From Raillietiella orientalis (taxonomy: Eukaryota): 40,691 nucleotides of DNA. The position numbers and the translations under genes were made by a program. Location of the stretch: NCBI GenBank assembly GCA_036172245.1, contig JAYWIR010000003.1:7378001-7418691 (forward strand), in the 5' to 3' direction. The notes beneath the pieces were generated by a model that had not been told where the DNA came from, ran no database searches, and was given only the letters and a program-made list of their open reading frames with translations. Below, piece by piece: positions 14,645-40,691 of this stretch. Position 1 is the stretch's first letter. Each line of letters begins with the position of its first letter.

Positions 14645-17600
14645 GATACGTGTCCTACGTGGACACCGTATGCACATTGCACCAAACACAACGTAAACAA
14701 GGAAATCAGAAGCACGCATGAAAAACGGCGTATGCATCCACGCGAGGACACGGAAACTCCATCTCCAACTGAATCTTATGTTGGCCAGCACGATGGATGT
14801 GAGCCAATTGAGAGTCCAGCAAATGAATGACCCGAGTTCTAAGAAAAGTTATCGCACTGGCGTTCTGTTTGAAAGTGCAGGACTGAAGGTGGAAGACCTG
14901 AAGGACTGAAGCTCCACGAAAGGTGCAGACGCATCACGAAAGCAAGGCTACGAAAACTGCACGGAGGTGCAGCATCTGCGAAACCGACAGATGCCATTCG
15001 TGGAACTGATTCTCGTGAGAACTGCGTCCCGGAGTTTCAGCATGACAGAGAACTTTCCCATCGGAAACGCGCCGAAACAGAAACAGATAAGGACCAATCT
15101 CGTAGATACAACGACTTTCCATAAAAAGCAATCAGGAAGGGACCAGCATTCCACTCTCTCAATATAGTGCAGTTCACGCACGCCTTGCAGGCCCTATAGT
15201 GTGCACGTGAGTTCCCTTTCAACAAGATGGACATGCTTGTCCTTTTGCTTTTACAGTTGCACATGCTGCTTGCATTGGCCACTCCTCTCAACCAGGAATG
15301 GGCAAAGTTCAAGGTGAGTTCCGGATGCCAGTCGGAATCGCCGGGTCCCCGCGGCGAACCTCAGATTCCCTTCGGCTGGAGCTTAAATCGAGAAGAACTA
15401 GAAGGAAAGAAAGTTGGTGGCTGAATCAGATCTCGAGCCCTGGGGGGAGTGGCAGGGTTTTTACTTTTGCACGTTTCCCTTGCCATCAAGTTTAGGCGTT
15501 ACACGCGCATTCACGTCTCTCCCATGGCAACACTCCATCCGATGTGCATGCAGTTCCACCATTCCGAATTGCTTCAGCGTGCGAGCACAGTCCGTTCGCA
15601 TGCAACCAGCAGCTTTCTGACAGCTGGAAGCTACCGTGGCTCTGATGCCTCCGAGCATGTTCCGCTTTCATCCACATGGTGCACAAGTCCGAGCGTGAGA
15701 CGAAAGTTTCGCTACGTACGCTGTCACGCTGCTCCCGTACTTCGGCTCCCTAGGTCACAGCTGGTACCTCCTCGTCCGCTTCAAAGCAACCTCACGACCA
15801 GCCTTGCAGACTTCATGTCTCCCTCTTCGGCGAGTGCTTCCTCATGAACCACGCACCGTTGACCTGCAAATTTCTTACACTGCCTCCGTTCCCTTGCAGC
15901 ATGTGCACGGCAAGAAGTACGCGAGCACGGGAGAAGAGAGGCACCGCCTTTCCGTCTACCTGAAGAACAAGCGAATGGTGGAGGAACACAACGCAAAGTC
16001 CGAGAGAAATGAGACCAGCTTCAGGATGGCTCTGAACCGGTTCGCCGACACGGTGAGTGCCATCAACTGCATCCTCTCGCGAATGCCTTCTGGGCAAGTG
16101 TTGCGAGCTGCACTCTGGCCCGCCCGTTCTCTCGCCACGCACGGGAAGTGTTTGGGTGTTCGGGTGTTGGGCTCCATAGGAAATCACCGTTCTTCACTAT
16201 TTCCTAGCAACTGCCACTCCAGGAAAGTGCCTGTCCCAAGTGCCCTCCCTCAGAATTGTCCTCATGCTTCTAAGATGCAGATTCCTTTAGCGAGCAATGC
16301 TGTCAGCTTCACGGAAGAGTATCGGAAGCTCCTCCGAATTCGTTTGCACTTCTTTTCGTTCTCCAGGAAGCCTGGGAGTGGAACAGAGGACTGAACGAAT
16401 GGAATGGAACTCCTCCCTCTCTTCCCCGGGCCGCGATTCCTGTATCCTCTGATATATTTCCAAACACTTTTGATTGGAGAGATAAAAATTGCGTGGCTGC
16501 AGTGAAGGACCAAGGATTTTGCAGCTACGATTGGGCCTTCAGCGCGGTAACACTTCTGGACTCTTCAGAAGCAGCGTTATGCTCGAATGATGATACCTTA
16601 GGTTGCTGCCCTGGAAAGTGCTTCATGCGTGAGCAAACAGAAATTGGTAGTACTGAGCGAGCAAACATCATCGACTGTTGTTCAGTTTCCGACAACTGCT
16701 TGCAATCGGCGTTGTCCTTTTTCGCATTTCAGTGTGCAACCACATTGAAAGGAGTCGACACGGACGCGTATTATCCGTACAAAAATTACGTTGGTGCCTC
16801 GCGTATCCACACTGAGCAAGGTGGTAGAGTTCGCTATGATTTCAGAAATCACACTGCAATTTTTCTGTGGACCACATCGGAGTCTGGATTAACTCGTACC
16901 TGTATCTGACAGCAGGGAATGAATATCTGCTGCAACAATCTCTTTACACTAAAGGACCGATTTCTGTGTCTTTCGATGGCAGCCACGACTCCTTCAGGTT
17001 TTACTCTTCAGGTACGACTGCTTACGTGCGCATTCCTTGTGCTGTACGGTCTCTTCCACAATTCCTAGGAGTGTACTACGAGGATACTTGCGGCAAAGCA
17101 GGAGTACATAACGGCCTTCTTGTGGGGTACGGAGTGTCCGACAGAGGAGAAGACTACTGGACAGTGAGGAATTCCTGGGGCACACATTGGGGCGAAAAAG
17201 GCTACATCAGGATCGCCCGTGGAAGAAACAACCAATGTGGGATCGCCTCCCTGCCTGTGCTTCCTGTGATCCTTACCTGACGTGTGAAGTAAACGTGTTG
17301 ATCAAAAAGTTTCCACTTTTGTATCCGCATTGCTGTCTACCGTAGACAACACGAAGACACTTGTAACACCGCGTAATTACACGTTCTTCTTCAAAACGGA
17401 AAGCAGTATTCCCAGCCTATTGCGCAGGGAGGCTTCGAAGAGAAGTAAAGATGGCGTTTTCGGGGGAAATAGCCAAACTGCTGGTGCTCCGCCTCACGCA
17501 GTGTTGTCAGATTGCCTTGCGTTTGCGCCGCTCGTAATGGCGCTAATTTGAGGATCTTTTTGCATTTCGATTGGTGTCTTTCACGACCGCAAATGCTCCC

Positions 17601-19674
17601 AGAGCATCGGATGTCGACCCACTCTCCTTCAGATTCCCTTGTGCAGAATCCTCACTTTCACCAAGGAAACTGAGGCTTCATCTCTCCAGGTAATTTGCGG
17701 TCTTCCTGCGCCACAAAAAACTTCACTCACTCTTAACCACTCTTCTGTTCCGGCTCTTCTTGTATTTCTTCGATCTGACCCACAACAGCTTAGGGCAGAG
17801 TCGCATTTTCTTTTTTTTCTTGTCTGTAGCGAGATCCGTGTATACGGAGAAGTTTGAGATGAGAATCAGTCCTTCAACCTTCGTCCTGACTTCAATCGCT
17901 CCAACGGTAGAAAGGGTTCATCTTTTGCCAGGCTGAGGCCTGAACGCGTCCGGCAAGGCTCGCATGTTGACCCGAAGTGAGGTCGGCTACAGAGCTAAGA
18001 CTAAGAACATGGGGTCGTCGCCAGCTGAAGACTACCCGTCGCCCCTTCCTTTAAAGACAGGAAGAAAACTCTCTGCGATCTGTGCGTATCTGAGGAAGGC
18101 ACCGGACTCACTCTTGGAACGAGGAAGCATCTGTCGTTCTCCAAAATGTTCGACAGCACGACGCCGAATTGACCTCGGTGAAGTGAAGAGACAAGGAAAA
18201 GTTGTGCGGCCACGACACTGGTACTCATCCAGAAGGACATCCCTCGCCTTTTCTGTATTTCCTTAATCACGGAATCCTTCGTTGCCTGTCAGCGTGGAAG
18301 GCGAGAGTCAATCCAACCAACCCTGTCGTCTGTAACCTCGCAACTGACGGCCTTTCTCTGGAAGGGAGCTGCCGCCTTCCATGTCGTTCAGAGCCCGATG
18401 AGATTCGCTTACATGACCTTGCGCTGTTCGCGGTGACTACCAACGACTATCCGCTTTACCATAAACAGCAGCATTTGGTTTTCCTCACGTTGCAGAATGT
18501 CCTTCATGGAGTACCCGCGGGTGGATTTCGTCCAGGCAAGTTCCGAATCGCGACAGGTGTGGGGGTTTGGTCCTTTCTGTACCTACACGAATTTGCGCTC
18601 CTTTTCTGCATATTTGAGACCATTCTATCGCCATCTTCGGTAATCCGATGGGCACCCTCAGATTCCTTTTGGTGCGCTTGTTCTTTAGACATGCACTGCC
18701 GCCCACCTCGTCTTCAGCAGCTTCTTTCTTCTTCCGCATTATTGAGACTGTCTCGAACTCCTTGAGAACAGCCCTCAACGATAAGCTATCCATTCACTTT
18801 TCCATTCGCTTCTTTCGTAGGGTGAGTAATTTGGCCCCATGCAACCACCAGCTCCATTAATGATGATGTTCTTGACACCCAGACAGCAAGTTGAGGACCC
18901 TCCTCAATAGCCGATTTCCCCTGTCCAATCGCCCGTACGGAAGCCTCATTCATTTGTTATCGTGTCGTTTTCCTATCGTGCTCTCCGCTCTTTTCTACCG
19001 CCTTGAAGTTTTTCTTCCTGCTTTGTGGGGGCATCCATCATTGATGTCATAATAAAATTCTTCCCAATTTGAAAATATCTTTAGGATCACTTGGTCCTGC
19101 CAAGTGAGAGATCTTGTGTTGACCGGTTTGTGGATCGCCAATGTCCGTTTCCGCGTCGACGGAGAAACAAATAAAATGAACCCACACAGGAGAAAAGAGA
19201 TTATCTGGTGCTGAGGGAGAAGCAGGGAAGCAGCCCATAAATCATTTCCACGTGAGGCGTCCTCTGCATCCTGTCGAGGATGCCGACAAATTCTTTAGCC
19301 TGATCTCTTAGGTGGGACCAACTGGAGGCGTTATTCAATAATGTTACCTCCCAGTTGATGGCGTCCCTGTCATCTTTCCTTTTCTTTGCGCGTTGCAGGC
19401 TCCCACGAATCGAAATATGCAGCAGAAAACTGCTTGGGACGCGGCTCGTCGCCGGGAGGCGCGCATGAAAGGCCTCGAAAATTGTTCGTCAGGTCGCTTA
19501 TCGTGGTTCGTGAAAGAGTCGATCCCAGAGGGGTTCCAGGGACTCAGTCCATGCGTGAGGACGGGAAGGTCTGCTTCTCGCAGCACCGATCCGAATTGGC
19601 ATGCACACTACATCGTGTCTGGTGATAGAGGCGTGCCTTGCATGGGATTTCCCAGTGCAATACCAGCAATGCCG
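14645..19674. repeat. Right arm of the ~5 kb inverted duplication (partner 730-5770); includes a copy of the LINE remnant at ~19008-19674
   Basis: Reverse complement of 730-5770 along its length. Confidence 0.97.
15227..17280 (+). pseudogene. Cathepsin L-like C1A homologue; exons 15227-15313, 15900-16052, 16367-16546, 16602-16789, 16846-17011, 17069-17280; catalytic Cys replaced by Asp; 1-nt deletion in exon 4
   Basis: All introns GT-AG and phase-consistent (last three 55-57 nt). QGFCSYDWAFS in place of QGxCGSCWAFS; His (VHNGLLVGYG) and Asn (WTVRNSWG) retained. gagcaaacatc near 16663 has one fewer A than the other copy, breaking SEQNIIDC. If that is a homopolymer assembly error, the gene is intact. 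Confidence 0.9.
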
Positions 19675-24364: not shown

Positions 24365-25197
24365 TTCCCCGTATCCAATGGTGGCGGCGTGCATTGCAGG
24401 GGAGTCCCCAATGCAACAGCATCAGCGCCGAATCCTGCCATTTTAGGGGAAGGATCCTTGTTTGGGTTATCACTGGGGGCCACTTCAGGTCTTCCGTCCT
24501 GATGGCGAGCAGCTCGCCCCAGTTTTTCAATCCTTGCGGAAGGACGCTCTGGGTTGTGGCGTCTGCCAGCTGTCCCATTGTCCAACCGCTCAACAATTTT
24601 TCTCTGCCTGCGATACGGCAAGAGACTTGCCACCTCGGCGTCCGGCTGCTGACGAGGGCCCTACGTAGGAAGGGTAGCCCCGTCGCCAGGCAGGTCGTCT
24701 CTGCCCACGTGCTCCTGGCTGGACACTCCAGGATCTCGCGTAGAATGCAGCGGGCGTATCTGCCGCGTCGCAGGCTATTCCACCTCTCGTGGCTCCTCTG
24801 ATTAACTACCGCCCATGTGCCAACTGTTTCTTCCAGCCATGCGCTGGAGTTGACGGGGCTGCAGATCATCAGCGCATTCTCCTTCGCCAGGGTGGCTATT
24901 CGTACGAGGAGAAGGCCGCATCTTCTTATCTTCTTTCCACGACATAAAAGAAGAGATGCAACTCCTTCGGTTTTGGATGCAGGTCTGGCGAGGAGGCGGG
25001 CAGGAACACACCAGGGGGTGCTCCACAACTTCGCTGCGATAAGCAAGGATCGCCATCGCAGCTGAATTTCCATGCGCTCTAACGTCAGGAGGCCTAGACC
25101 ACCATCACGACGCGGAGCGCACAAGTCCATCGAAGGGACTAAAAGTCCGTCAGAGGCAATCTAGGCCTCCTCTTGCCCCAAAGGGCGATGCGGAGTC
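24365..25197 (-). mobile_element. Family-1 LINE copy B, upstream portion (post-RT region)
   Basis: LRIALWGKRRPR, DLCAPRRDGGLGLLTLERME ... LLHWGLPCNARRHHWIRGS; resumes at 21799. Confidence 0.9.
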
Positions 25198-27561
25198 CGA
25201 TCACCTTGGTGAATGCGGACGTCAAGTTGTTCTCCAGGCTCTGGGTCGCGCGCCTAGGCAGGATCGCTGGATCCGTGGTAAGTCCGGAGCAGTCTTACGC
25301 TGTTCCCGGGCGGTCCATGGAGGCGAACCTGTTCTTCGCGCGCACGTGGCTCGAGCTGCAACGTTGCGTGGCGCACGACAGCCAGGTAACCTCATCTGCG
25401 GCTGCCGAGGCTAGGCGTCGCTGCATTCGGCCTGAGGAAGCGCCGGGTGCCTTGGCGGTCGCGGTTGATCTCCGCAAGGCGTTTGACTGCGTGAATCAGG
25501 ATATCCTCCTGGAGCTTCTGGAACGCCTCGGTCTCCCGGTGCACCTCGTGGCGTATTTGCGCGCTTGCTGGCGCCACGCGCTCATTTCCATCTCTTTTAG
25601 CGGCTGCCACGTGCACGGCGTGCCGGTGCGGTGGGGCATCAGACAGGGCGACAGCTTAAGCCCGTTGCTCTTCAGCATCTTCTTTGAGTTGGTGCTGAGG
25701 GCGTACAGGCTAACGCTGGCCAGCCTGCCGAGCTCCTATTCAGGAACGCCGTCCGTGGCGGCCTATGCTGACGAACTGCTTCTCCTTTCACCCATGACCA
25801 CCCCGGCGTCCAGTCTCGAGGATTTCTTCGAGCTGATTCGCCGAGGAGCGGGCATGAGCGTAAACCGGAACAAGAGCGTGGTCGTTCCTATTGGTGCGGC
25901 GTGGGAGGGACAGTCCGACTGGATCCGCCTGGGGATCCCGACCGCTTCGTCCATGCAATATCTGGGCGTTCCGCTGGGGAACATCAGCCCAGTGGAAGTG
26001 TGGTCGGACTGCCTTCGGAAGGCTACGAATGCTCTGAGCCCGTTCCAGCATTGCAGGTTCCTCCTGTCGGAGCGGGCCGCGATATGGAACACCTTCGTTG
26101 GCCCCCTCTTGCGCCCCCTGCTTTTTGTTTGCCCGCCCCCCTACTAGGCCAAGCTCCAGGCGCACAGCCTGTTGAGGAACGCTCTGTGGGGACCTGCGAG
26201 GTGCAGGATACGCCTCAAAGACTTGGCGGCTCCGCGTCGGGATGCTGGCTTAGGCATCCTGACGCTGGAGAGAATCGAGCTGCAGGTGCAGCTTCGGATG
26301 TTGGCCCTGTGCGCCAACCTTTGGTCCACTCCGTGGTGTGCTCCCGCGCGCCTGCTTTTGCGGCGCTGCACCGGCAGCGATGGACTTCTGTCGCTGCGGC
26401 CGCATAAGGAGCGCGCCACGAGAAGCTTCGGTTTCCCGTTGAAACCCCTCTACCAGCTCCTGGAAGCCCAGGAATGGATCTCCTGCCGCCCAACGAACTT
26501 TGAGGCCTGGCGGCAGGAACCGTTGCATGGCTGGGCAAAGCACCATGATGTTTCCCTCCTGGAACTCCGTTGCACTCACCTCTCCCCGTACTGCACGGTG
26601 GATGAGGTGTGCAACAGCCAGGAGAAGTGGCCTCGCCTGGCCGTCACGCTCCTCGCTGACGCGCTGTCAGCCCTGAGGGCAAGAGATGACAGCTGCGAAC
26701 CGGCGAGATGGGAGGTCGCCGGCACCATCGCAGGAACAACACGACCCATTGGCGGCTGGAGGACTTGCGAGCTGGCAGACGCCGCCACCCCTCGCCACAT
26801 CCCGAAGGGACTCCTTCGATGGAGTGAACACTTGAGTGTGCCCCCCGAAGAACTTGTGGTCCCTCCCTCCTGTTTGAACACTTCTGTGTTCCCCCTTTCG
26901 TGGAAGCAGGACGTCATCATGCTGGTGCATTGGGGTTTTCACTCCAACCAGCGGACGAACCGTGTTTCCGGGGGAGTTGTCTCCCCAAACTGTAAGCGGT
27001 GCAGGGAAGTGGAAACGCTCCCGCACTTGCTCCTGGACTGCGGTGTCCTCCAAGGACTGTGGCAGTCTGGCCACAGCTCTCCAGCACCAGGAGGACACCG
27101 CAAGAGACTTGATGCGCCGCTTCTTCACGCCAGGCGGCCTGTCTTTAGGTGCTGTCGTTGCAACCGTGTATTGCACCCGGGCCATCGGCAAGGCCCACCG
27201 AGAGTTGGAGAAGCTGGCCATTCTTCGTCAGCCCACCGGAATAGTCAGCGCGAACATGACGTCGGCTGCCGAGTGGACCCATCTTCCAGAGGGCGTTAGG
27301 AGCGAGATCTGCGGCATCCATATCCGGTTCTAAAAGAATGGCACGGCCGCACCAAAGACCCCTGTCCTCTACCCTCCCCATATCTTTATTTTTATTTTTT
27401 ATATGTATATTTGTGCTCCCCTCCCTCTCGTTCCTGACTTTCGGTATACCGACTTGCGTGTCGGGGATCCCACCCCCTTCGTCTTCTCTGTATCCTTTGT
27501 CCGGGAACTCTGTTCCCGGATAGTTTTTCAATAAACGCCCCGGCGCACCCGGGTGATAAAC
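25196..27561 (+). mobile_element. Family-1 LINE copy C, 5'-truncated RT to 3' terminus, with stop and frameshift
   Basis: PITLVNADVKL, DLRKAFDCV, GIRQGDSLSPLLF, YADE (mutated YADD), MQYLGV, NCKRCREVETLPHLLLDC; terminus aataaacgccccggcgcacccgggtgataaac. Confidence 0.93.
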
Positions 27562-28563
27562 AGCAGGTGACGTTCTTGCGGTGCAGCGCAATCTTCAGAG
27601 GTCTGGTTTTAAAGGCCAGCAGTTTAAACTCAGGCCCAACCGCGATAAGTGTTGCGTCTTGTCGTTGAATAAACAGAACTTCGCCCTTTACTGGGCCCTT
27701 TCTTGGCTGGGAGCACACCCGGAAAACCATCGACACTCGACGTAGGCGCTGTATCGATAGTCGAGGTGGACGCCTCCACGGTCGTGTAAGAAGCCGGTGC
27801 CGTTATCTCCCTTGCAGGTCCGGCTCTCCGGAGGAGGGTTCCTCCAGATGGTTGCCGAAGGACACTTTCTTCACTTCTCCGTACTGAGAGATGTGGTCCC
27901 ACACATCTTCCTGCGTGGTGCTGCAGTGCACACCACGCAGGTATACAGGGGTAGAGGAGAACTCTCCCAGTCCGCGCAGTCTCCTGCCGCTGATGACGAG
28001 ACGGTTTTCCATGAGCTCTTCCTGCAATTGCTCGTCCGCGGTGTACACGGTGAAGCCTGTAGAGGACGGAATGATTGCGTAGATGAGCTTAAATTTCACG
28101 TTGTCTTTGTGTAACGCCACGTAGATGTCCCTCACGTTCGCGATCCTCAGCATTCCCGTTTTAAAGGTAATTGGCTCGTCATGGTCAGCAATTTCCCAGA
28201 CGGGTTTCCTCACGCGGTGGACTTCAAAGACGCCGGGCTTCGACGGCCCTGCCATTGTTCCTCCCGTCTTGTTCGGCATAAGGATGCCGCTTCGAGGCCG
28301 CCGCGGCCACGTACGTCAGCGGCTTCTGCGGCATCGTTGCCAACGCTGGCGCAGTTACCTCTCCGCATGTGCCGAACTAGCTCACCTCCATTGGCGTGGG
28401 AGACGCCATGCAAATGTTCTGTCCTTGTGAGGGGTACGGGTTCGCTCCTTCAGGTCGGGCTCCGTCAAGGGTTCCAGGAGGGGAGGGAAGCGTGCTCAGG
28501 GAAGGGGGAGAAAAGCACTGTTCACTTGGCACTTGTTCGAAGCTTTTTTTGCACTTGGTTTTG
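27562..28563 (-). mobile_element. Family-2 LINE 5' remnant (leader and degenerate ORF1) directly downstream of a U1 snRNA fragment
   Basis: FKTGMLRIANVRDIYVAL..IYAIIPSSTGFTVY..VYLRGV..VWDHISQYGEV is homologous to the ORF1s at 34700-35250 and 38400-38900 (FRTGLIKVSNIREVCLSL..IQAIIPNNSGFAVF). The N-terminal PMEVS*FG resembles MEVTFG/MEVTYG in those copies. The 3' boundary is uncertain. Confidence 0.85.
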
Positions 28564-28652
28564 CAGGAGCTTGCGCGAACGCAGGCTTCCAACCTAAAAA
28601 TTATGCTCCCGAGTAATCTGCATTTGGGGTTATCGCAGAGATGCAATGGATA
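28564..28652 (-). ncRNA. U1: U1 snRNA 3' fragment (SL2 loop, SL3, Sm site, SL4); 5' end absent
   Basis: Minus strand reads tatccattgca-tctctgcgataaccccaaatgcagattactcgggagcat-aatttttag-gttggaagcctgcgttcgcgcaagctcctg. This matches recalled metazoan U1 landmarks: UCCAUUGCA, UGCGA..CCCCAAAUG, Sm site, GCG-UUCG-CGC. About 20 nt of SL2 are deleted. Confidence 0.85.
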
Positions 28653-30200
28653 GTGGAGTCTCAATGGATGGTGCGATGAACCGAAGAGAAGACCCGGAGC
28701 AAGGCAGCCTTGCTGCTGGCTCCTTCCCCCCCCTTTTTACAGAGCTACTCCGTTCGCTGCGTATCTTCAAGTGACGCAAATTCTCCGACTTTGGAAAAGT
28801 GGCAGCAACGAGCAGGAGGGTTCGTCGGGATTCACTCCGTTCGAAAGTCCAAAGAATCCCGTAAACTCCTGAAATGGATGGCGACGATCCGCTTGCCCGG
28901 CGAATTCCGATTTCGTTCATTTCGACTCTTTTCGCCCTCCCTCCGCGGTTTGGTAACCCTGCGTCGGCCTAGGGATCTCGGCATGCTCGGGCATCCACTT
29001 CCCTCTGCTGAGCGCTTCCTAATTGCGTGCACCTTGTAGTGATTCGTGTCAAACATCTCCACTTCCGACCCTCTGGACCGCTTCGGTTTGGAATGGGCAG
29101 TGTGGATGAGGGCGCCGCGAAGCAATCTGTTTTGTACGGCTCATCGCGTTCCGTGTACTGTTTTCACTTATACCTCGAATGCCCAACGTTTCGCTAAGTT
29201 CTCATCACTTCACCGGGCTAGCTTACCAGCAAGCATGAAAAGGTAAATATTAAAGAAAAAAGAAACAAACGAGAAAAGGGGGGTGGGGGAATGCAGTGCA
29301 CGTTGAGGATTATGTCCTTTTCTCCTCTCAGAGTACATTCTGAAGTATCGGTTTAGGGGACAATCCAACTCTTGTCGAATTTCGCTGTTTCGGTAGTTTG
29401 AAAGAAGAAGGATGGATTTCTTTTTTTGGCCATGAAAAGTATCCGTAATAGTATGTAAGGAAATTCCATGCATGAAAAATTTACATTGCCTCGTGTATTC
29501 CTTGTATTTTCAACTGTTCATGGAAAGATGGTAGTATGAACGATATCCCGCCCCCCATCAGCACCGAGAATTCATGAATTCTCGGTAGTGATGGGGAGCC
29601 GAGCAGAGTTGGCCAAAATGTTTAGTACCAAAAAACAAAAGCAAAAACATGGCTTTCTGTGTTCCATGCTTTTGAATGTATTTAAAACAAAGGAATGGAA
29701 CATTCCAATCGTCATAGTGGATCTGTGAATTGAGTTAGATGCAATCTCTGCATGCACCCTTGGGATTTTCAAGTCTTTCTGTTCAATTGCCAGAAAATTC
29801 CATTCACATGAGGGTTGTGGGAATCACATTCGAGTGTGCTTCCCCATGATGTGGCATTCTTCAATCAACTGACACAAATTGACAGTACTGTATGATCTGT
29901 TGTCAAACTTGCCCTTTTGTTGTGAATGTGAATTTACAGCACTGTGCATTTGTGTAGATTGCTGCAAGACTTTTCAAAGCACACAATCCCTTCAGAGTGT
30001 CTTTCCTGAATTGTTTTTCAGAAGCTTGCCTACAAAAAAAAGGGGGGGGGGGGAATGTCCACAGTAGGTTTTGGAAAGACTAGTGGCTTCACATCGTCCC
30101 AGGTTTCATTGATTGGAATGCTTAGTATCTTCCTAAAACTTGTGTCATTGGCCCTTTTTTTTTTTGTTTTTTCAAATGGTTCTGTTCCTGTACAGGGAGA

Positions 30201-30918
30201 TCATGTGTTCACTGAATGAATGTGGAGTGTTGTGTACAGCATGTTTTGTTGCCTAATGAACAATGATGCACAAATGGAAGCATTGCCTTTCAAGCTAAGA
30301 AATATGTGCTGAGTTAGGATCTGTGCATGAAGTGATAATGGAGGCAAATGTCTCCAGTGAAAGTGTCCAACTATATAATTGCATACATGTATCATCCAGA
30401 TTAGAACATTATTCAAGATTGTTGCTGTCAAAGATTAATTTGCAACAAGTATGGGAATTGTCAGAGGTATCCAACCTTCTCTGAACAAAGTGGGAAGCAC
30501 TTCTGCATAGGGGAGCAATGTTCCTCCATGACTCAGTACAGCAGTCCAGTCATCTTCAGTGACATATAACCAGGGGTTATTCAATCCCTCATTGCATAGA
30601 AAATGGATCATTTGCAACTGGAACCTGTTCTGAGCTTCTGCTTTGCCTAGTCCCCGATATCTTGTATTGGGAGCAATAGCGTTCAAAATACACGCTATAT
30701 TTGTCATATCAGATCTGTCAGGATCAGAAGTGTATATGCACTCTCCCCTTGCTGCTGTGAACAAATATGGGTAGGTTAGCAGATGTCCTGTTTCCATTCA
30801 CAGGTCCTAATTTAAGGTTAATGCCTATGATATGATCAAGGGTTGACGGTTTGGCAAATTGGATAGTAAGTTGGTCTATATTGTCATTTGGATTCCTCCA
30901 AGTGCTATTGGTGTTCAT
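30201..30918 (-). pseudogene. Endogenous viral element: putative N-terminal half of a chuvirus-like nucleoprotein (internal stop and frameshift)
   Basis: ORFs 30435-30797 and 30201-30431 are in the same frame across one stop. ILVAN*SLTATILNNVLIWMIHVC aligns with NMLANDALTPAIMNNIILWAIHRC at the start of the N fragment at 32520. Boundaries are approximate. Confidence 0.6.
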
Positions 30919-31739
30919 GGCTGATACTTCAGGTACTGGCAACAGATGATGATGGTCTACCTCGGTTTGGTTTACGAGTATGCTCTGTGACGTTCCGATT
31001 ACTTCTTCTAGGTGCAGGTGCAGGACCTTTCTTACTCTTACGTTTAGATTCAGTAGCCAGGTATGCAGACTTGGTGCACCCAAGAAACAGAAATATTCTG
31101 TTTCGAATGTCTATTTACTATATGATTGTACCTAAACAAGTTGACTCACATAAAATTCACGATCTTTCTTTTTGTCGCAGAATAGATTGACAATTCTTTC
31201 ACCTAATTTACTAATAGAGAAACACCATACTTTGTAGCCTCTGACTATACAATTGTGTGTTACAGATGTACGTTTTAGATTATTTGCATCTTTTTACAGT
31301 AGAAACTGATTGGCCCAACATTTCATGGAAACTGTTCCGTGCTCAAAAAATATCGGCAAATTAATTGATTGTGTAATTGCCCTATGTAGGCCGTTTCAAC
31401 TTGTCAGTGGATTTGCCTTTTATGTGTGATATGTGTAACTGTTGATAAACTGATGAAACTGCAAAGAATCCTCTTGACTGTTTTTTTTTTCCCTTTGGAA
31501 TGCCAGAATGATCTTTGGAACGCATGGAGTCATTTATTATTTTCTCCCCAAATTGTGGGGTTTGTTTCATTTGTAGCAAAGGAAGGCCATGTTTTAACAC
31601 CAACATGGTTTTCAGATAAAAACAGTCTGCTTATCGATGCCCTGCCCCGAATCATTTTACTGATTGGAGAAGAGATATCCGCAACAACACCGTTTAGTTG
31701 TTTTTTTTCATTTTGATATAGCTAGGTAGCTATATTGTG

Positions 31740-32520
31740 TGTCTATTAGCAACCAGGCATAACTCAGTCAGTGCGCGAACTGCATTAATTGCTAATTCAG
31801 GCAGGCTCTCTACATTCGAGGATGCTGTTTCATAATGAGTGATCATGTCATCCAGAATTCTTCGATGTCTAGGGTTATTAGTTCATCCTTGGTATTCCCC
31901 CATGGTCGCATAACTGGATCCTCCGTACAGTTTGAGCATACCTTTTGCTACGTACGCTACATTCTTACACAGTGTGGATTTTACATTACCTAAATCCTTG
32001 GAAAACCCATAATATGGGTTGTAGTTGCCCACCGTCAATGTCTGGTTAATGCAACTGCACTCGTCGACAAACATTGTCGCTATGGCCGTCCAGTTAAAAT
32101 TGCAAAATCCAACATAACCTTACGAATTACCAGTAAGACTGTAAGCCCAGAACCCACTGTAGGAGACAAAGTGACCCCGATCCTTAACGATAGATTGCGC
32201 ATATCATGGCACCACGTGGTAAAGATAATCTCTGCGTTCGTTTCATCAGTGAGATTTCCAAGGTGTGCAAACAGCTTTCGAACATAATTTGGAGATAGAG
32301 AAGGGTTAGCGAATTCCTCGTCAATATGTTCTGGTTGATCTTGTCGGTCTTGTTGACAGTAATTTGCCCACGTTTAGCGAAAGAAACGTGAATATACAAT
32401 TGTCTGAATATACAATATGTTGCCAACTTGAGTTAACATCAGGGTTTTACATCTGTGGATGGCCCACAGTATGATATTGTTCATGATGGCTGGCGTTAGT
32501 GCGTCATTTGCCAGCATGTT
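31740..32520 (-). pseudogene. Endogenous viral element: chuvirus (Jingchuvirales)-like nucleoprotein, C-terminal portion, degenerate
   Basis: Hand translation across one frameshift and two stops: LSLRIGVTLSPTVGSGLTVLLVIRKVMLDF/FNWTAIATMF..VGNYNPYYGFSKDLGNVKSTLCKNVAYVAKGML..YQG*. This resembles the recalled chuvirus N block GSGLT..F.W..NPYYGF..DLG..KST.YK.LAYVAKELL..Y.GW. Confidence 0.78.
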
Positions 32521-32960
32521 GGGGTTGCCGGTTTGCGAAGCAGATGATGGGGGGGGGGGGGGGGGGTTGAAAATACTTCAAGCTTCCCCGATATTTTGAG
32601 TCAAATATAATACCATTTTTCAGACTCTCAATGAAGCCGTACTGTACGTGCTCCATGTTATCTTTTGTGAAGTCTACGACTATAATGTGTTCTCCATTAT
32701 AAAGATGGGCTGCATCGGCTTTGCGGCAGGAATGCATGTAAATAGCTCCACGTTTGAGGAATAAAAATTTCGCCATTGTAGTCTTGCCGGTATTGCCACG
32801 TGTCGTAGCACCAGTGGATTTTTCTTGTACTTGGTTTGCAGCTTGATGTCGACTATACTCATCTGCCATTGTTTGAGTTGTAGGTTGTCGATATGGTTTG
32901 GAATGGCTCTGTTTCTTGAAAGGCGGAAGCATTCCTTGATAAAATTAATATTGGAAGGAT
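32521..32960 (-). pseudogene. rep: Endogenous CRESS-DNA virus Rep fragment (SF3 helicase domain)
   Basis: Across frameshifts: LKQWQ, IHWCYD, Walker A GNTGKT, Walker B IIVVDF, FIESLKNGIIFDSKY, motif C IICFAN. This layout is typical of nanovirus/alphasatellite-like CRESS Reps. No HUH endonuclease part is seen. Confidence 0.88.
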
Positions 32961-32967
32961 ATTATCT

Positions 32968-35686
32968 TCGGGGTGTGAGCTTTTGGCCGTGGATGTCTAA
33001 GCCCCGTAGTCGCCCGCTCTTCTCCATGAAAGACAGCGCCTCCATGTAAATAACGAACAGCATCGGACTTAGCGAGTCGCCCTGCCGAACTCCTCATTCC
33101 ATCCGAATGGCTGCCGTTTCTACCCCGTTGATCTTGATCCGGAAGCGTTGATTTCCGGAGAATGATTTCTACGAAGTTGCTGAAGTATTCCGGAAGTCCC
33201 AGCTTTTCCAGAATCTTCAGCAGCATCCCGTGATCTATGGTGTCGAAGACCTTCTCCATGTCGGTGAACGCCAGCACCAGGTTCCCACCGATGTGTCGGC
33301 TGAGTCTCACTGTGGCTTGGGCCCACTTGACATTGTCCGACTTGTCGCGTCCAGGCAGCGCACAAGTCTGGACTGGAGAGATTAGCTTCGGCATGATTTT
33401 GCCTAAGCGGTTGGCCCAAGTCTTTGCCAACCACTTGGCGTCGGAGTTGAGGATTGAGATCGGCCTCGCAAACTTCCATCTGTTCGCCATCTGGCGCGCC
33501 ATCCTGCTCCGCGGCCTTCTAGGAAAATTTCTGCTCGAACGACTCTTCGGATCTTAATGGTCTTCAGAATCGCCTCCAGGACATCCTGATGACAGGGATG
33601 GTTCTCGAACCAGGTGGGCATGCTGATGAGCGCCGCCCTGGTGCCTTGTCTTCGTCGAGGATTTTCCGTCCTTAGGGAAAACCGCAACAACGGGTGATCG
33701 GACAACGCAGTGAGCGTGTCCGGAAAGCCTTGTATGCGGTTCTCTAGTTCGGAATCGATGTGTTCGCTGATCGGGCGACCCAGCTTGTGGGTCACCTGCA
33801 GGCACACGATGTCTTGATGTGCGATGGTTCGCACAATCCTTCTTTTGACCTGGTCGATCAGACCATTTACATTCCAGGAGGCGATGTTAATCCTGTTGGC
33901 GGTCGATGGGGTTGAGGCCATAAAGGGGAAGACCTACTCTTGGCCTTCCTGAGCTTCTTCTGTCTGGGAGAGCGTGGTGCTCTTCCAGACGAAGAAGAGG
34001 GAGCGGTTTTCTCGCTGCCAGCGTCGCTCTCCGTCCCGGTGAGGTCGGTGAGGTCGGTGAGGTCGGCCTCCTCGGTGTAGTGTTCAGTTCGTGCGACGAG
34101 CTTCCGGGGTAACACTCTATCTCCACGTTTGCGCAGAAGTTTGCCTTCACGTCGAGAAGCTTATCCTCCAGCATCTCTCGCTCGGCAGTCTCCACCACCT
34201 GGTTGATGGTTTCTTGCGCATTGCAGATCTTCTGCAGGAGTTCCTGCTGAGGTCCGCTCTGCGCCTCCATGAGTTCTTCCGCCAGTTTCTCCACCTCCTC
34301 GGTGTTCTTCAGGGCAACCTGTGGCACCGGGGTGGGTTCTGACACTTTCACTTCTCCTTCCTCCGCTACCTCAATCCTCTCGCCTTCCTCCGCGCCTACT
34401 GCTTGGGCAAGTGCAGTTTCCTGCTCCTTAACGAGCATCTTCCTCTTCCCCTTCTCCCCTATCTCCACAAAACCGTCCGCCGAAAGCGGGGCGGCCTCCT
34501 TGGCCTTTGTCTGTTTACCTGATTTTGAGGTTTCGCAACCTCCGTCAAAACCTTCTCCCTCCCGGTGGATTGACCCCGCATAGTCCGGTAGTTTGCCAAC
34601 TCCGGACAGCACCACCTCGCGTGCCCTGGCTGCTTGCAGAACGAGCACACCTCGAGCATGACAGCCGCGCACCTGGAGTCCTTACTTCCCACAGCGAAAG
34701 CACTTAGACCTGGGACACGCGCTCATTCTGTGACTGCAATTTTTGCAACCGGTGCAGAACACCGGCTGCTGCCTATAATATACGGAGACCTGCGTGTAAC
34801 CGTCTATATGTACGATCCTCGTGATCTGTGCTCCCTCGCTCAACTTCAACTTGGCGTTCACCTCGTCCGAAAAGATCTTCCCTGTTATGTTCTGGAATTG
34901 CAAGTCCAGAACCTCCCCGAACTTGGACAAATAGTCCCAAACCGTCATTTGCGTGGTGGTCATCCCCATGCCTCTCAACAGAACGCTTGTGTACGGCATT
35001 TCGCCGATCCTACCAACCATTCGCCCCTGTATATTAATGCTCGTCTCGATGAGGGCCTCACGTAGTGGTTCACTATCCGAGTAGATGATGAACCCCGGCG
35101 TAGTCGGGATGATCGCCTTAATGCTATCGAAGTCTACATTTGTCTTGTAGAGAGACAGTTAGACCTCTCTGACGTTATGTAACCGGATTAAGCCATTCTT
35201 CAAGGTGACGGACTTTATGTTCGGACCAACCCGAACGATCGGCTCGTCCACCCTGGCCAGCTTCCCCCTTTCCGGTTTCCCGAAACTTCTTTGCGGCTGG
35301 GCACTAGCCTGGCCCGCTGCCACCGCCGCATACGAAAAAGGCTTTGCAGCCGAACAAGATCACATTTCATCCTGCACCCTATGCGCAGCGTGGACGCCCG
35401 CAGGTCCCGCCTGGGACGTCGCCGCTGCAGGCACGATCCTCGACGTTGCCGCCGTCGCGGGCGCGAACCTAGGCATCGCCGCTGCCTCGCCATCGCCAAA
35501 CGTTACCTCCATTTCCATATGGGACGTCGGCCTCTTCGTCACACCTGTTGCCTGCATCCCCGCGGCTGCCACTGCCGCTAAGGAAGTTGGCAGGGCTTCC
35601 ACCGTGGATTCCTCGCCGCTGATGCTGCAGGTGTAGTGGATGATCCTCGCCTGCTCCATGAGTCCACACTCAATTTTTTACTAATT
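32968..35686 (-). mobile_element. Family-2 L1/Tx1-like unit I: ORF1 (ATG 35659; RRM-like region, CCHC knuckles) and internally deleted ORF2 (APE endonuclease start at 33921; RT cut before YADD)
   Basis: FCTGCKNCSH, KCFRCGK, CSFCKQPGH; IASWNVNGL..DIVCLQVTH, LSDH; RPISILNSDAKWLAK, DMEKVFDTIDH, VRQGDSLSPMLF. Confidence 0.92.
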
Positions 35687-35806
35687 TACCCTCTCGGGGC
35701 ACTCAAAAATTGCCGCGGCAGTGAGGTTAGTCACTGCCTTGGCGGGGTATTGAGTATAGTTTTCAACTAGCAATAATCGCGCCTCCCTTTCGTTCAGCGG
35801 CGGCAG
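35687..35806 (-). ncRNA. U4: U4 snRNA fragment (about nt 20 to 3' end), junction copy 1
   Basis: gccgctga..gaggcgcgattattgctagttgaaaactatactcaataccccgcc matches the recalled U4 5' stem-loop/K-turn and U4/U6 stem I region. It is followed by a central hairpin ggcagtga/tcactgcc, Sm site aatttttg and 3' hairpin tgccc-cgaga-gggta. Confidence 0.92.
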
Positions 35807-38800
35807 TTTTCCTCAAGTACCACAAGGGGTGGGGCAATTTATTGCACATGCAGGAAATCGAAACTTTGATTACGCACTTTTAAGTTCATTCCACTATCAC
35901 TTGGGGAGTCACTCAGGGAACTCTACGTTGGATTTGCACTTGGGAAGACTAAGTATGGGTTTGGGCTCGGGCAATACTTACTATCCTGCGAAGGATGTGT
36001 TTGTACGTCCATGCTTACACTTTCCCGCAGTTCCTGATTCCAATTTCCTTCTGGACGAGTCCTCGGAGGATGTCCATGGGATGTGCTGCCGTTCCGGTTT
36101 TCGCCATCTTCCACCATCGGATTAGGATGGCTTTAATGAACAAGGCAATGGTTATCCTAGCCATCGGATTATACAAGGGTGCACTGGCGTTCCCCTGAAA
36201 CATCAGCGCTAGTACTTCCGTGGTGGTGACGTCGGGTAGTCCTAAGAACCTTTTCAGGGTATCCCAGTACCGGGGGTATGTGGGACAGGTTAGGATGTGC
36301 AGTCTTGTTTTCCCATCTCCACACGCCTTGCATTTCCCGTATTCCACGTTTCCCGTTATGTGGTAGAACCTGGAACCACTCTGGATTCCGCCCTGATAAC
36401 ACATCAGGACTTAGTCCTGAACGTTCGGCGGTAGGTCACTCCTCCATAATGTTGTGCCAATCGCTAACAGATTGATCCTCAGACTTCCGTGGCGATCGGC
36501 AGCTTCATGGAGAGCACTGATGTCCTGTTTGTCTTCTTGAATGATTCTGCGGATGTTTTTCCTATCTAACCTGGATAACGCGAAGTTGTCGTTTTTCCAC
36601 ACCTCGCGGGTCCTGTGGGTGAATTTTTTCAGCATCATCTCGATATACCGAAGTATACGAGAATGGTGAAGGTTTCCTCCTCTTCTCCATTCCTGGATTT
36701 TCTTCAGGGTAACTCTGGGTTGCTGGTGGATCCAGCTCATTGCGTCAGCAGGCACGCGAAGCCTTCTAGGGATCACCAGGATGGATTCCTCCTGCCAGAG
36801 TTCCCTGCTTCGTGGCACAATCTTCAGCTGGTGCTTCTGTACCACCGGCTGTTTCCTCTTCCAGGTGGGATCGATAGTGTTCCAATCTCCTGCTTCGCCT
36901 AGCAGCGCAGTTATCAGGCCTCTCGAGCTGTTCAGCAACAACGCGTAGGCCCTGTGCGCTACATACGTCCAGTAATTCCAGTGAGTGGCTATGTCCAGGA
37001 TGTGTCGCGTATCCATTATTCCTATGGAGAGTGCAGGAGACTTTATCCCGGAACCGCCTTTTTCCCTGGGACGACACAGGGGTTTCAAACCAACTCCAGT
37101 AATTCCAGTGAGTGGCCCCACAGTGTTTTTCGCTGCAGATTCTCTACTTCTCTAGTGGTTTCCGTGTTCATCCTAGCGAAGGCTGCCACGATGAGTACCT
37201 TTGAAAGGAGTACTCCGTTCCATAGGTTGGCTCTCGAGATATTTCAAGAAACCTTGTTAAGTCGAGCGACAGAGATGTGTCCCTTAAAGTGTTTCCTGTA
37301 CAGCTTCTGTAAGGCTTAGACGATATCTTCAAACGAGTGTCTCTTCTGGCCGTTGTACTGATTGCACATGTCTGTTGCCCAATTCCTCTTCTCCAGTACT
37401 CCGACTTCCCTTTTACATTATGGAAAACGTACGGTCTCTCGTACTCCTCGAAGCACTTGGAGAGTGAGCGATCTTGCATGTTCCGCTCCCGGAACGCACC
37501 TTGCCTCAATCGTCTATCGCCAAACTGCATGTTCGCAAACAGTAATATCCTGTGTTTCCAGACGATGAAGAAGGAGCGGGTTTTTCGCTTACAGGGTCAC
37601 TCTCCGTCCCGGTGAGGTAGGTAAATTCGGCATCCTCATTAGAGTGTTCTGCTCGCGCGATGACCTTTATGGGTAGCGACTCTATCGCCACCTTCGCACA
37701 GAAGTTCGCCTTTACTTCGAGAAGCTGTTCCTCCAGCTTTTCTCGCTCGGCTACCCCCACCATCTGGTTCACAGTCTCCTGAGCATCGCAGATCTTCTGC
37801 AGGATTTGCTCCTGCTGGGGCCCACTTTGCACCTGCACGAGTTATTCTGATAGTTTTGCCAACTCTTCGGTGGATTGTCGGGCAGCCTACGATAACGGAG
37901 TGGCTTCTTTTTCCACTTTCGCGTCTTCCTGAACTCACTCCATTTTCTCGCCTTCCGCCGCTACTTCTAGACTTGGAGAGGCTTCCTGCACCTTGACGAG
38001 CATCCTCCTCTTCCCCTTCTTTCCGACTTCTATGAAGCAGTCCGCCGATACCGCGACAACTTCCTTAGTCTTTCTCGGCCTTCCTGCTGTCTTTTGAGGC
38101 TGTTCCGCCTCCTTTAAATTCCTCTCTCTCACGGGAGAGAGTCCACGAATCCTTCTGCAATTAGAAATTCCGGACAGCTCCATTTAGCATGCCCGTGCTT
38201 CTTGCAGAAGGAACAAACCTCCGGCTACGCGCAGTTTCGGACTTCGTGTCCAATCTTGCCGCAGCAGTAGCATGTTGATGTGGAGCAAGCGCAGGCCTTG
38301 GGGCCAAACTGCTTGCATCCGCTGCAAAATACCGGTTGCTGCCGGTAACGCACACTCACGCAGTGGGATCGTTCGTCTATGACGGCTATCCCGGGGATCA
38401 GCGCGGCATCATTAAGTTTTATTCTGGCGATCATGTCGCCAGAAAAGATTTTTTCAGAGAAGTTCTCGAACTCGAGGTCAAGAATTTCTCCAAACTGTTC
38501 AATGTATTTCTAAACCGTTAGTTATGGTGTGTAGATGGAAATACCGCGCATATAGACGGTCGCGTACGGCATCTCGCCGACACCACAGACCATCCTGCCT
38601 TGGATGTTGATCCCTTTCTCGATCAACCTTTCCCTGATGTTTTCACAGTCTGTGAAGACTGCAAACCCGGAATTGTTTGGAATGATCGCCTGAATGCGAC
38701 CAAAGTCCAAATCCGTCTTATCTAGGGACAGACATACTTCCCTGATGTTGCTGACCTTGATCAGCCCTGTTCGAAACATTCTGAACTTGACCTCCGCGCC

Positions 38801-39369
38801 AAGCTGGACAACATGCCGGTCCACCCTTTCTACCGTGCCCCTTAGGGGCTTCCCAAATTTTCGTGGCGGCTGGACACTAACCTGTCCCGCGGTCACCGAC
38901 GCGTAAAAAAATGGCTGTGTTCACGCAGCCGAGCAAGATGCCGTCGCATCTTGCGCTGCCTTCACCGCGTGGACGTCCGCGGGCCCCGCCTGGTACGCCG
39001 CCGCGGACGCAACACTCGACGTTGCCGTAGCCGCCACCGCGGTCGCGATCCTCGGCGTCGCCGCCACGGGCACGACCTCCACCGTGGCCGCTGCGGGCCT
39101 GACCCTTGGCATCGCCTCCACCGGCGCAGCAAAGCCCGCCACGGGCGCGATCCTCGGCGTCGCCGCCGCCGCCACCTCGCCGTTGCCATACGTTACCTCC
39201 ATGGTTTCCATGGGAAACGACGGCCTCACGTCTCCTGGTGCCTGCATCCTGGCAGCTGGTCTTGATGCTCGGGACGACTGCAGGTCTTCCACCGCGGACT
39301 CCTCGGCTCTCCTGGTGCTGTAGATGGTCCTCGGTTGCACTATTTCCACACTGGTCTTCCTGAAACACT
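35807..39369 (-). mobile_element. Family-2 unit II: degenerate ORF1 joined near 37555 to the post-RT part of ORF2 (endonuclease and RT core deleted), plus 3' UTR
   Basis: ORF1 knuckles FCSGCKQFG, CYCCGKIGH, CSFCKKHGH; LCRPREKGGSG; C-terminal CKACGDGKTRLHILTC; ends aataaattgccccaccccttgtggtacttgaggaaaac. Confidence 0.9.
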
Positions 39370-39489
39370 TGCCCTCTGGGGGCACTCAAACATTGCCGCG
39401 GCAGTGAGGTTAGTCACTGCCTTGGCGGAGTATTGGTTATAGTTTTCAACTAGCAATAATCGCGCCTCCCTTAAGTTCAGCGGCGGCGA
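39370..39489 (-). ncRNA. U4: U4 snRNA fragment (about nt 20 to 3' end), junction copy 2
   Basis: tcgccgccgctgaacttaagggaggcgcgattattgctagttgaaaactataaccaatactccgcc...ggcaatgtttgagtgcccccagagggca. Same structure as copy 1, with 10 differences in 120 nt by hand count, one of them in the Sm site. Confidence 0.92.
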
Positions 39490-40691
39490 TTTTCCCCAAG
39501 TCCCACAAGGGGTGGGGTAAATATATTTCACAGTTTTTGAAACACATTCATACTACAGTCTCATTCATACCACTGACACTTGATTACCGCTTTGAAGTAT
39601 CTGGGGTTTCTCAAGTTCTGCATTCCGGATGGGTTGCCGGATGTTTGGTCCCGGGCGTCGTCTTGAATCCTCTACAGGATGAACCGGTACGTCCGGGCAT
39701 GCATTCTTCCACAATTCCTGATGCCTATCTGCTTCTTGATGAGTCCTTGAAGGATCTCCATCGGAGGTGCGCCTCTTCTGCCTTATCTCATCTTAGACCA
39801 GCGCACAAGTATTGCGGTGATGAATAGGGCAATGGTCGTCCTAACCATTGGATTGTAACGGAGAACATTACCATCTCCCTGAAACATTCCGAAGATGATC
39901 TCCATTGTGGAGCTGGTGGTGAGTCCAATGATCCTATTCAGGATCAGCCAGACGTGTATCAATTTGGGACACTTAAAGACGTCAAGTCTGGTGTCGGTGT
40001 CGTCACATGCTACGCAGTCTTCATCTTCCCGTCTTCCGGTAAAGTACTGGAGTCTGGACCCGCTTTGGATTTCTCCATGATAAAACATCAGGAGGTTGTC
40101 CTGGGTCTTCGGCGGAAGGTCACTCCTCCAGAGCGTGGCGCCAATCGCTAGCAGGTTGATGCGATCGCTCCCGCAGCGTTCGGCAGCTTCTTGGAGGGCA
40201 CTGATGTCTTGGTCGTCTTCTCGAATGAGTCTTCTGAGGTTAATTTTGGTTACCCTAGACCACGCGAGATTGTTGTGGTTGATCCACACCTCACGGGTCA
40301 TATGGGTGTACCTTCCTAACATCATCTCTATATACGGAAGTATACGAGTATGATGCAGGTAACCTCCTCTTATCCACTCCTACATTCGTTCCACGATAAC
40401 TCCGGGCCGCCGGTAGATCCAGCTTCTCCTGTCCAAAGCGACCAGAAGCATCCAGGGGATCACCAGGATCGATTCCTCCTGCCAGAGTTCCCTGCTTCCC
40501 GGCACGATCTTGATTTTGTGCTTCCGCACCAGCCGTTGCTTCCTCCTCCAGGTTGGGTCCATGGACATCCAATCTCCTGCTCGGCCTAGCAGCGCAGTCA
40601 TAAGGCCTATCGTGTTGTTTCACAACAACGCGTAGGCCCTGTGTGCTGCGTACGGCCAGTCATCCCAGCGGGTGGCTATGTCCAGGATGTG
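39490..40691 (-). mobile_element. Family-2 unit III: ORF2 C-terminal part and 3' UTR; runs off the window
   Basis: Homologous to 36015-37010 (RINLLAIGATLWRSDLPP, CVACDDTDTRLDVFKCP); ends tttaccccaccccttgtgggacttggggaaaa directly against U4. Confidence 0.92.

Follow-up and report, generated by a model that had tools for sequence, protein, structure and literature searches.

Long interspersed nuclear elements (LINEs) that home into multicopy RNA genes are regarded as models for safe targeted insertion and for parasitism that spares the host. As far as the available text of the cited papers goes, two such LINEs, namely Keno, a member of the Tx1 group of the L1 clade with an endonuclease of the apurinic/apyrimidinic type (APE), and Utopia, home into U2 small nuclear RNA (snRNA) genes (PMC4640811). 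In the U2 arrays of Phytophthora, intact U2 genes rather than 5' fragments are described upstream of Utopia copies, and this layout was explained by its authors through deletion or gene conversion within the arrays (PMC4640811). Target changes are numerous in the Tx1 group, one family of which is given a U5 target in a figure legend (PMC4494074). The locus considered here lies in a window of 40,691 nucleotides (nt) of Raillietiella orientalis DNA (contig JAYWIR010000003.1), which is the whole stretch that was analysed. It comprises the remnant of a LINE in which a piece of U1 snRNA stands ahead of the first open reading frame (ORF1), together with two related LINE copies in which U4 snRNA occupies the corresponding place.

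An snRNA at the front of a retroposed unit is known from SINEU, a group of crocodilian short interspersed nuclear elements (SINEs) whose heads are derived from U1 or U2; these are moved by Tx1-Mar and have undergone repeated 5' addition, and template jumping is discussed in the same text for the Tx1-moved SINEU as well as for L1 (PMC4494074). U1 itself is described as a target of Dada DNA transposons (PMC8869645). Our search of the literature, with Repbase reports and subscription journals outside its scope, yielded neither a LINE described from U1 or U4 genes nor an autonomous LINE in which an snRNA precedes ORF1.

In the window, all three ORF1s of the LINE family have an snRNA upstream on the same strand, which is U4 in two cases and U1 in one. 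A scan of the whole window (40.7 kb) with Rfam at an E-value of up to 5 gave eight matches, and the snRNAs among them were limited to the two U4 copies and the single U1. The motif ATGGAGGTRA was found three times, starting at 28391, 35512 and 39202, against 0.17 expected occurrences, and none of 100 shuffled sequences reached three; each of the sites lies behind an snRNA. The distance from the snRNA end to the motif was 172 nt behind U1, and 175 nt (35512) and 168 nt (39202) behind U4. By simple arithmetic, about 21 of 81,382 random placements, counting both position and strand, would come as close as 10 nt to the observed spacing. Given that three diverged copies share both the order and the near-equal spacing, and that only three snRNA matches exist in the window, chance adjacency is very unlikely, as the sequence-only reading of this DNA had already argued from the occurrence of two different snRNAs in the same position.

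The equal spacing behind two different genes further indicates that the intervening ∼170 nt are part of the element and begin right at the end of the snRNA. Upstream of U1, a comparison of 28700-29320 with the ORF2 and the 3' untranslated region (UTR) of the LINE family gave nothing significant except for the terminal 30 nt at 29280-29309. The U1 piece has no recognisable family ORF2 or 3' UTR directly upstream of it, which argues that it goes with the element behind it and not only with one in front.

All of the U1-linked features, which are the U1 piece, the 5' UTR and the ORF1 remnant, are on the minus strand. The Rfam U1 model (RF00003) matched 28564-28711 (-) over model positions 1-166 with 35.9 bits, and the E-value of this full-length match was 9e-7 in a search of 3 kb and 1.2e-5 in the search of the whole window. 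The U1 match anticipated by the sequence-only reading was thus recovered, but with a score below the curated cut-off (gathering score 69.5). When 28564-28662 (-) was searched alone, the score was 36.5 bits (E-value 2.4e-8, model 60-166, flagged as 5'-truncated), which is likewise below 69.5, and the 5' half searched alone (28640-28780) gave no match to Rfam U1 up to an E-value of 10. An nhmmer search with an intact metagenome U1, taken from contig L025 (described below), aligned positions 67-163 of that gene to 28565-28645 of the window (E-value 1.1e-7). In a three-way alignment, 28663-28711 showed a weak resemblance to U1, and the fold of the U1 stretch was not unusual (z = -1.3).

Two stronger interpretations of this match were considered and set aside. 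The reading of 28564-28711 as a complete U1 was rejected because the 5' part adds no score, the full match being worth 35.9 bits and the 3' part alone 36.5. A functional U1 snRNA gene was ruled out by the distance of these scores from 69.5, by the 5' 60 positions, which are unrecognisable, and by the deletion of a part of stem-loop 2 (SL2). From its sequence we take 28564-28662 to be a non-working piece of a U1 pseudogene. The earlier description of it as the 3' part of U1 through SL4 with the 5' end missing is a fair one, the SL2 loop region, SL3, Sm site and SL4 being recognisable and the rest not. In one DNA sequencing run (word share 0.07), 22 contigs matched the window at 80% likeness, none of them over 27601-28739; one 151-nt contig of that run was identical to the window over 28771-28921.

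Behind the U1 piece, the first ATG is found at 28409 on the same strand, 154 nt past the U1 end, and snRNA-derived sequence accordingly stands at the 5' end of a retroposed unit, as it does in SINEU. The open stretch 27806-28315, of 170 amino acids (aa), was compared with the U4-linked ORF1s by tblastn and alignment. It showed 40% identity over 130 aa to the ORF1 at 34889-35278 (E-value 7e-30) and 35% identity over 139 aa to the ORF1 at 38435-38851 (E-value 2e-24), which bears out the claim of the sequence-only reading that a third ORF1 of this family (its family 2) lies ∼150 nt behind U1. The likeness to the U4-linked relatives stops at 27851, and the frame is disrupted by a TAG at 28377-28379 and by a frame shift before 28315; judged from these lesions, the U1-linked ORF1 is dead. 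The stretch 28410-28563 has no clear nucleotide likeness to the 5' UTRs of the U4-linked copies, and its length matches theirs. Pfam found nothing in the U1-linked ORF1 or in the frames upstream of U1, the ESM Atlas searched with ORF1 gave unnamed eukaryote clusters only (top score 0.91), and a scan of metagenomes with the ORF1 alignment gave 591 pattern matches, none of which was confirmed.

Chimeras of the L1 template-switch type (the U6-L1 kind) are single events that fuse an snRNA to a 5'-truncated LINE or an mRNA at changing points. This description was also tried for the U1-linked copy and rejected, because three copies whose proteins are 35-40% identical have the join at a homologous position, 168-175 nt ahead of the motif.

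The U4-linked copies, which are referred to as elements A and B, form a head-to-tail array situated 7 to 11 kb from the U1-linked copy in the same window. Within it, 33983-37004 matches 37556-40691 at 67-71% identity, and the order is the C-terminal part of ORF2, 3' UTR, U4, ∼170 nt and ORF1. Both U4 copies have the same 5' join to an element 3' end, which is made via one stretch containing CCCCACCCC. A comparison of the two copies revealed an uneven distribution of identity: the U4 core is 92% identical (109/119) and the 32 nt ahead of it 88%, whereas the element parts beside U4 reach 59% in the 3' UTR, 64% in the 5' UTR and 59-72% in the coding sequence. This contrast fits a conserved host gene from which diverged lineages of the element each took their snRNA copy, and would not be expected of an snRNA that diverges along with the element as one of its parts.

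Taken together, the simplest reading of these sequences would be that the snRNA was exchanged between lineages. The sequence-only reading had proposed that the order of snRNA and then ORF1 is a lineage trait and that lineages switched between snRNAs. This is supported within the window, where three diverged copies share order and spacing. The picture of the snRNA as merely a head is not supported in that form, since the 5' sides of the U4 copies abut element 3' ends and the U4 core is conserved beyond its flanks.

The reading that we favour, with moderate confidence, is that the U1-linked copy is a dead, 3'-cut member of a lineage that homed into U1 genes and that belongs to the same family as the U4-homing array. 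The snRNA ahead of ORF1 would then be a copy of the target, so that head and target would be one and the same sequence and the difference between U4 and U1 would represent a change in target specificity. In the mechanism envisaged, the family would nick snRNA genes near their 5' end, and the copied-in unit would carry the snRNA at its own 5' end, supplied either by a read-through transcript from the snRNA promoter or by a jump of the reverse transcriptase (RT) onto the snRNA as template. The snRNA part could pair with the target gene, whereby the whole gene would be rebuilt upstream of the element and a 5'-shortened snRNA left behind. The front snRNA copy would run to its 3' end, directly ahead of the ∼170-nt 5' UTR of the element itself. 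The promoter of the rebuilt gene might drive the element, and repeated insertions into the rebuilt gene would give rise to an array. The U1-linked copy would be what is left of a lineage that switched its target from U4 to U1, or the reverse.

The sequence-only reading had suggested, as a speculation, that the Sm site or the terminal hairpin could serve RNA stability or nuclear import. A function as target and promoter supply may be better grounded than such a role. A more far-reaching proposal is that this is an autonomous LINE family for which whole RNA polymerase II (Pol II) snRNA genes serve as an exchangeable module at the front. With every insertion an intact U1, U4 or other snRNA gene would be rebuilt immediately upstream, the host would keep its gene, the element would gain a promoter and a fresh landing site, and the module would be exchanged among spliceosomal snRNAs between lineages. 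We put this forward tentatively and with some doubt.

The class of the element was examined in its U4-linked relatives. The RT of element B matched Pfam RVT_1 (E-value 1e-10), and the best match of the RT piece among solved structures was human L1 ORF2p (E-value 2e-9), with R2 at 2e-4. The endonuclease N-terminus of element B gave weak ExoIII/APE matches (E-value 0.07-0.6), and its ORF1, in which a zinc knuckle is present, gave weak RRM matches (E-value ∼0.01). Searches by protein words, limited to longer proteins, gave no match at an E-value of 0.001 or below for either the C-terminal part of ORF2 or the RT. HMMER with the element B RT against cluster representatives gave 5011 matches at the same threshold, the best of which was a 1555-aa sea turtle gene model with 39% identity; the names of 20 of the matches were inspected, and 16 of these were unnamed while none of the four names indicates a clade. 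The Pfam match and the comparison with solved structures mark the RT of element B as L1-like. The U1-linked copy itself has no ORF2 and takes its class from these relatives, by which it would, on balance, be an L1-like LINE with an ORF1 of the RRM and zinc-knuckle type.

Homing of LINEs into snRNA genes was further investigated in metagenome contigs. An RT-based scan found 228 relatives, from which the best 80 were kept; Rfam was run on 50 of the 80 loci, and blastn and nhmmer were run on all 80 with the U4 and U1 pieces of the window and with U1 and U2 from metagenome loci. Joins with snRNA genes were present in 5 of the 80, four of them with U1 (L025, L055, L063 and L009) and one with U2 (L039), and the RT of these LINEs is 32-34% identical to that of the window family. 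L025 (23-55, 78-5572, 6060-6205, 7563-7726) holds an apparently intact LINE in a U1 gene, with an ORF1 of 495 codons and an ORF2 of 1306 codons (stop to stop). U1 positions 1-33 stand in front of it, an A-run and then U1 from ∼19-21 stand behind it, and ∼13-15 bp are duplicated; a second, intact U1 (158 bits) follows 1.4 kb on, in the next repeat unit. L055 and L063 carry one LINE family: U1 positions 1-19 precede the element, and after it come an A-run and U1 from position 3 onward. The duplication in L055, L063 and L009 comprises ∼17 bp (U1 positions 3-19). In L009 the LINE copies are in tandem, with just ∼18 nt of U1 between them, and the interrupted U1 gene of L055 has a whole U2 gene 225 nt ahead of it. 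At 7000-7260 of L039, one U2 gene has three LINE joins, at ∼38, 52 and 85, the first of which is the Keno/Utopia position, and the 5' region of the last element there is ∼70% identical to the U1-specific L055 family. Judging from these joins, LINEs whose RT is distantly related do home into both U1 and U2, with switches from one gene to the other.

Several observations weigh against the reading of the U1-linked copy as the remnant of a U1-homing lineage. It is a single copy, truncated and in decay. U1 can be recognised in it only beyond about position 60, so that the 5' join is not visible and no fixed insertion position can be demonstrated, and a cut at or before 27565 has removed the 3' end of the element, where any U1 remainder or target duplication would lie. 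The RT tree (107 columns) places element B in no supported group. The metagenome LINEs that home into U1 and U2 show a classical split target, with the first 19-33 nt of the snRNA in front, and not the architecture of the window; they are not close kin either, as their ORF1 has no significant likeness to that of the window family and their RT is as distant as given above. Transcription from the snRNA promoter is purely conjectural. Finally, both U4 copies depart alike from the U4 consensus in their first ∼35 nt, the 5' stem-loop included (35800-35826 and 39490-39521, both -). These common departures could mark a variant head that was inherited by both copies, instead of fresh copies of a host gene. 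Either the host U4 would be unusual or the array would propagate a variant U4.

The shared departures also enter into the alternative that survives best, a head carried along without any homing, in which an ancestor of each lineage gained an snRNA at its 5' end by an RT template switch, as in SINEU, and copied it along thereafter, so that the insertion sites need not be snRNA genes. Under this explanation the odd 5' features of both U4 copies and the homologous place of the join to the 5' UTR in three lineages are expected, and the U1 truncated at about position 60 with nothing recognisable upstream would be an ordinary 5'-truncated LINE copy. The available text on SINEU provides a precedent in the repeated 5' addition of U1 or U2 by machinery of the Tx1 type, and also a difficulty, in that a Pol II snRNA sequence has no internal promoter (PMC4494074). 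A carried head thus accounts for the truncated U1, but not for the U4 joins: it leaves unexplained why each U4 copy meets another element's 3' end on its 5' side, and does so at one and the same point, as well as why U4 is conserved (92% against 59-72% elsewhere). We consider it unlikely.

Homing by the same family could, on the other hand, take place without any snRNA-containing RNA if the front copy had arisen in the DNA itself, as a target-site duplication of great length. The first nick would then lie close to the 5' end of the snRNA gene, and the second at its 3' end or slightly beyond it. Such a process yields exactly a whole gene, the element and a 5'-shortened gene, produces arrays by repeated insertions and accounts for the high U4 identity. 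An exceptionally long target duplication, reportedly of 126 bp, is said to be in print for R9. The DNA-level process would nevertheless need its second cut at the 3' end of two genes, U1 and U4, that differ in length, and the relatives in the metagenome contigs duplicate just 13-17 bp, which makes this explanation rather improbable. That the element simply landed by a U1 pseudogene or inside an snRNA gene cluster, with U1 unrelated to it, would suit a window that is a dense pile of nested LINEs and has a parallel in L055, where a whole U2 gene stands ∼470 nt upstream of a LINE ORF1 merely through the clustering of U2 and U1 genes, but this already disfavoured explanation is very improbable in view of the 172 nt that match the 168 and 175 nt of the U4 copies (∼21 in 81,382 by chance) and of the fact that the U1 match is the sole one in the window.

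The coordinates of the features at the locus and of the second U1-specific family from the metagenome contigs are collected in the table.

Table. Positions of the snRNA pieces, LINE parts and neighbouring features (window coordinates unless a contig is named)
Feature	Position	Strand	Basis
LINE "P", RT and C-terminal domain; relatives elsewhere in the window	25143..27564	+	Pfam RVT_1, E-value 5e-19 (RT 25143-26144)
Stretch past the ORF1 remnant, without significant likeness to relatives; ends at the next repeat	27565..27805	-	similarity searches, sequencing-run contigs
ORF1 remnant: N-terminal piece with TAG, frame shift and 170 open codons (27806-28315), RRM-like core	27806..28409	-	tblastn, alignment
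Start motif ATGGAGGTRA, common to both U4-linked ORF1s	28382..28391	-	motif count
Likely 5' UTR, U1 end to first ATG, 154 nt	28410..28563	-	sequence reading; length like U4 copies
U1 snRNA remnant: SL2 loop region, SL3, Sm site, SL4; part of SL2 deleted	28564..28662	-	Rfam U1, nhmmer
Stretch given to the U1 5' part by the full-length Rfam alignment; non-significant alone	28663..28711	-	Rfam U1, three-way alignment
Candidate 3' terminus, the third of this LINE family; the U1 piece follows ∼570 nt downstream	29280..29309	-	CCCCACCCC and flank
U4 copy ahead of element B; 5' side directly adjoins 3' end of upstream copy	35688..35826	-	Rfam U4, 67.3 bits
U4 copy ahead of element A; 5' side directly adjoins 3' end of another copy	39371..39512	-	Rfam U4, 76.1 bits
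Second U1-specific LINE family, at the very start of U1	L055 490-508 and 6094-6146; L063 5010-5150; L009 5740-5757		

On the 3' side of the U1-linked copy, 27400-27565 contains a multi-copy repeat that ends at 27564, and several contigs of the sequencing run match it at 85-90% likeness and diverge past 27564. The plus-strand LINE (25143-27296) probably has its 3' end in the repeat 27400-27564; this LINE would have been inserted backwards into the U1-linked ORF1 and thereby cut that copy. Upstream of the U1 piece, CCCCACCCC recurs in the candidate terminus; it occurs three times in the window against 0.39 expected, the other two occurrences being the U4 joins. The 30 nt of this terminus are identical to the family 3' terminus at 23 positions, a score that none of 500 shuffles reached, and the sequence further upstream is not similar. 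The terminus is located at a drop in G+C, on the border of G+C-rich and A+T-rich DNA, and the sequence after it is neither U4 nor any recognisable snRNA.

Other features of the window were noted in passing. An A+T-rich block (∼40% G+C) fills 29300-32950, the interval that separates the U1-linked copy from element B and its truncated RT. The frame 32507-32944 (-) has a weak Pfam RNA_helicase match (E-value 0.0065, below the cut-off) and may be what is left of a replication protein. A 5-kb inverted repeat of 96% identity (730-5766 and 14654-19674) is the youngest duplication in the window by a wide margin. A palindromic stretch at 6531-6630, inside LINE-related sequence, matches Rfam MIR2084 on both strands at 35-37 bits against a cut-off of 100.

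If the favoured reading of snRNA-gene homing is true, a LINE family that switches between U1 and U4 and leaves a whole snRNA in front would add new targets to U2, known from Keno and Utopia, and U5. It would also tie together, in one case, target choice, promoter supply and the repair of the interrupted gene. In its relation to Keno, the window family would likewise be a LINE with APE and RT that takes spliceosomal snRNA genes of the Pol II class as its target, and Keno belongs to a group with many target changes; the metagenome contig L039 has a join at the U2 position of Keno and Utopia. Unlike in Keno, the snRNAs of the window are U1 and U4, and the front snRNA reaches its 3' end, compared to a short 5' fragment in Keno. 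The likeness to Utopia, according to the available text, lies in intact snRNA genes upstream, 5'-shortened genes downstream and several lineages in one array (PMC4640811). Utopia differs in having a restriction-like endonuclease, in belonging to another clade and in its restriction to the U2 target, and the equal spacing behind U1 and U4 in the window points to a join at the snRNA end.

SINEU shares with the window family an snRNA at the 5' end of the retroposed unit and the exchange of U1 and U2 between subfamilies, and the available text gives the source of its transcription as unknown, possibly upstream (PMC4494074). SINEU elements are, in contrast, short and non-coding, have heads whose 3' truncation varies in position and use a Mariner transposon as their insertion site (PMC4494074), whereas the unit in the window belongs to an autonomous LINE, has an intact snRNA 3' end and has relatives with an snRNA on both sides. 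On the favoured reading, the snRNA heads of SINEU, themselves unexplained, would find an autonomous counterpart in the window family. The U1 LINEs of the metagenome contigs (L025; L055, L063 and L009) are only distant kin of the window family and differ from it in their classical split target, the duplication of 13-17 bp and their A-rich tails. They resemble it in being L1-like, in an ORF1 with zinc knuckles, in their position in U1 genes, in the tandem copies of L009 and in having diverged kin in U2 (L039).

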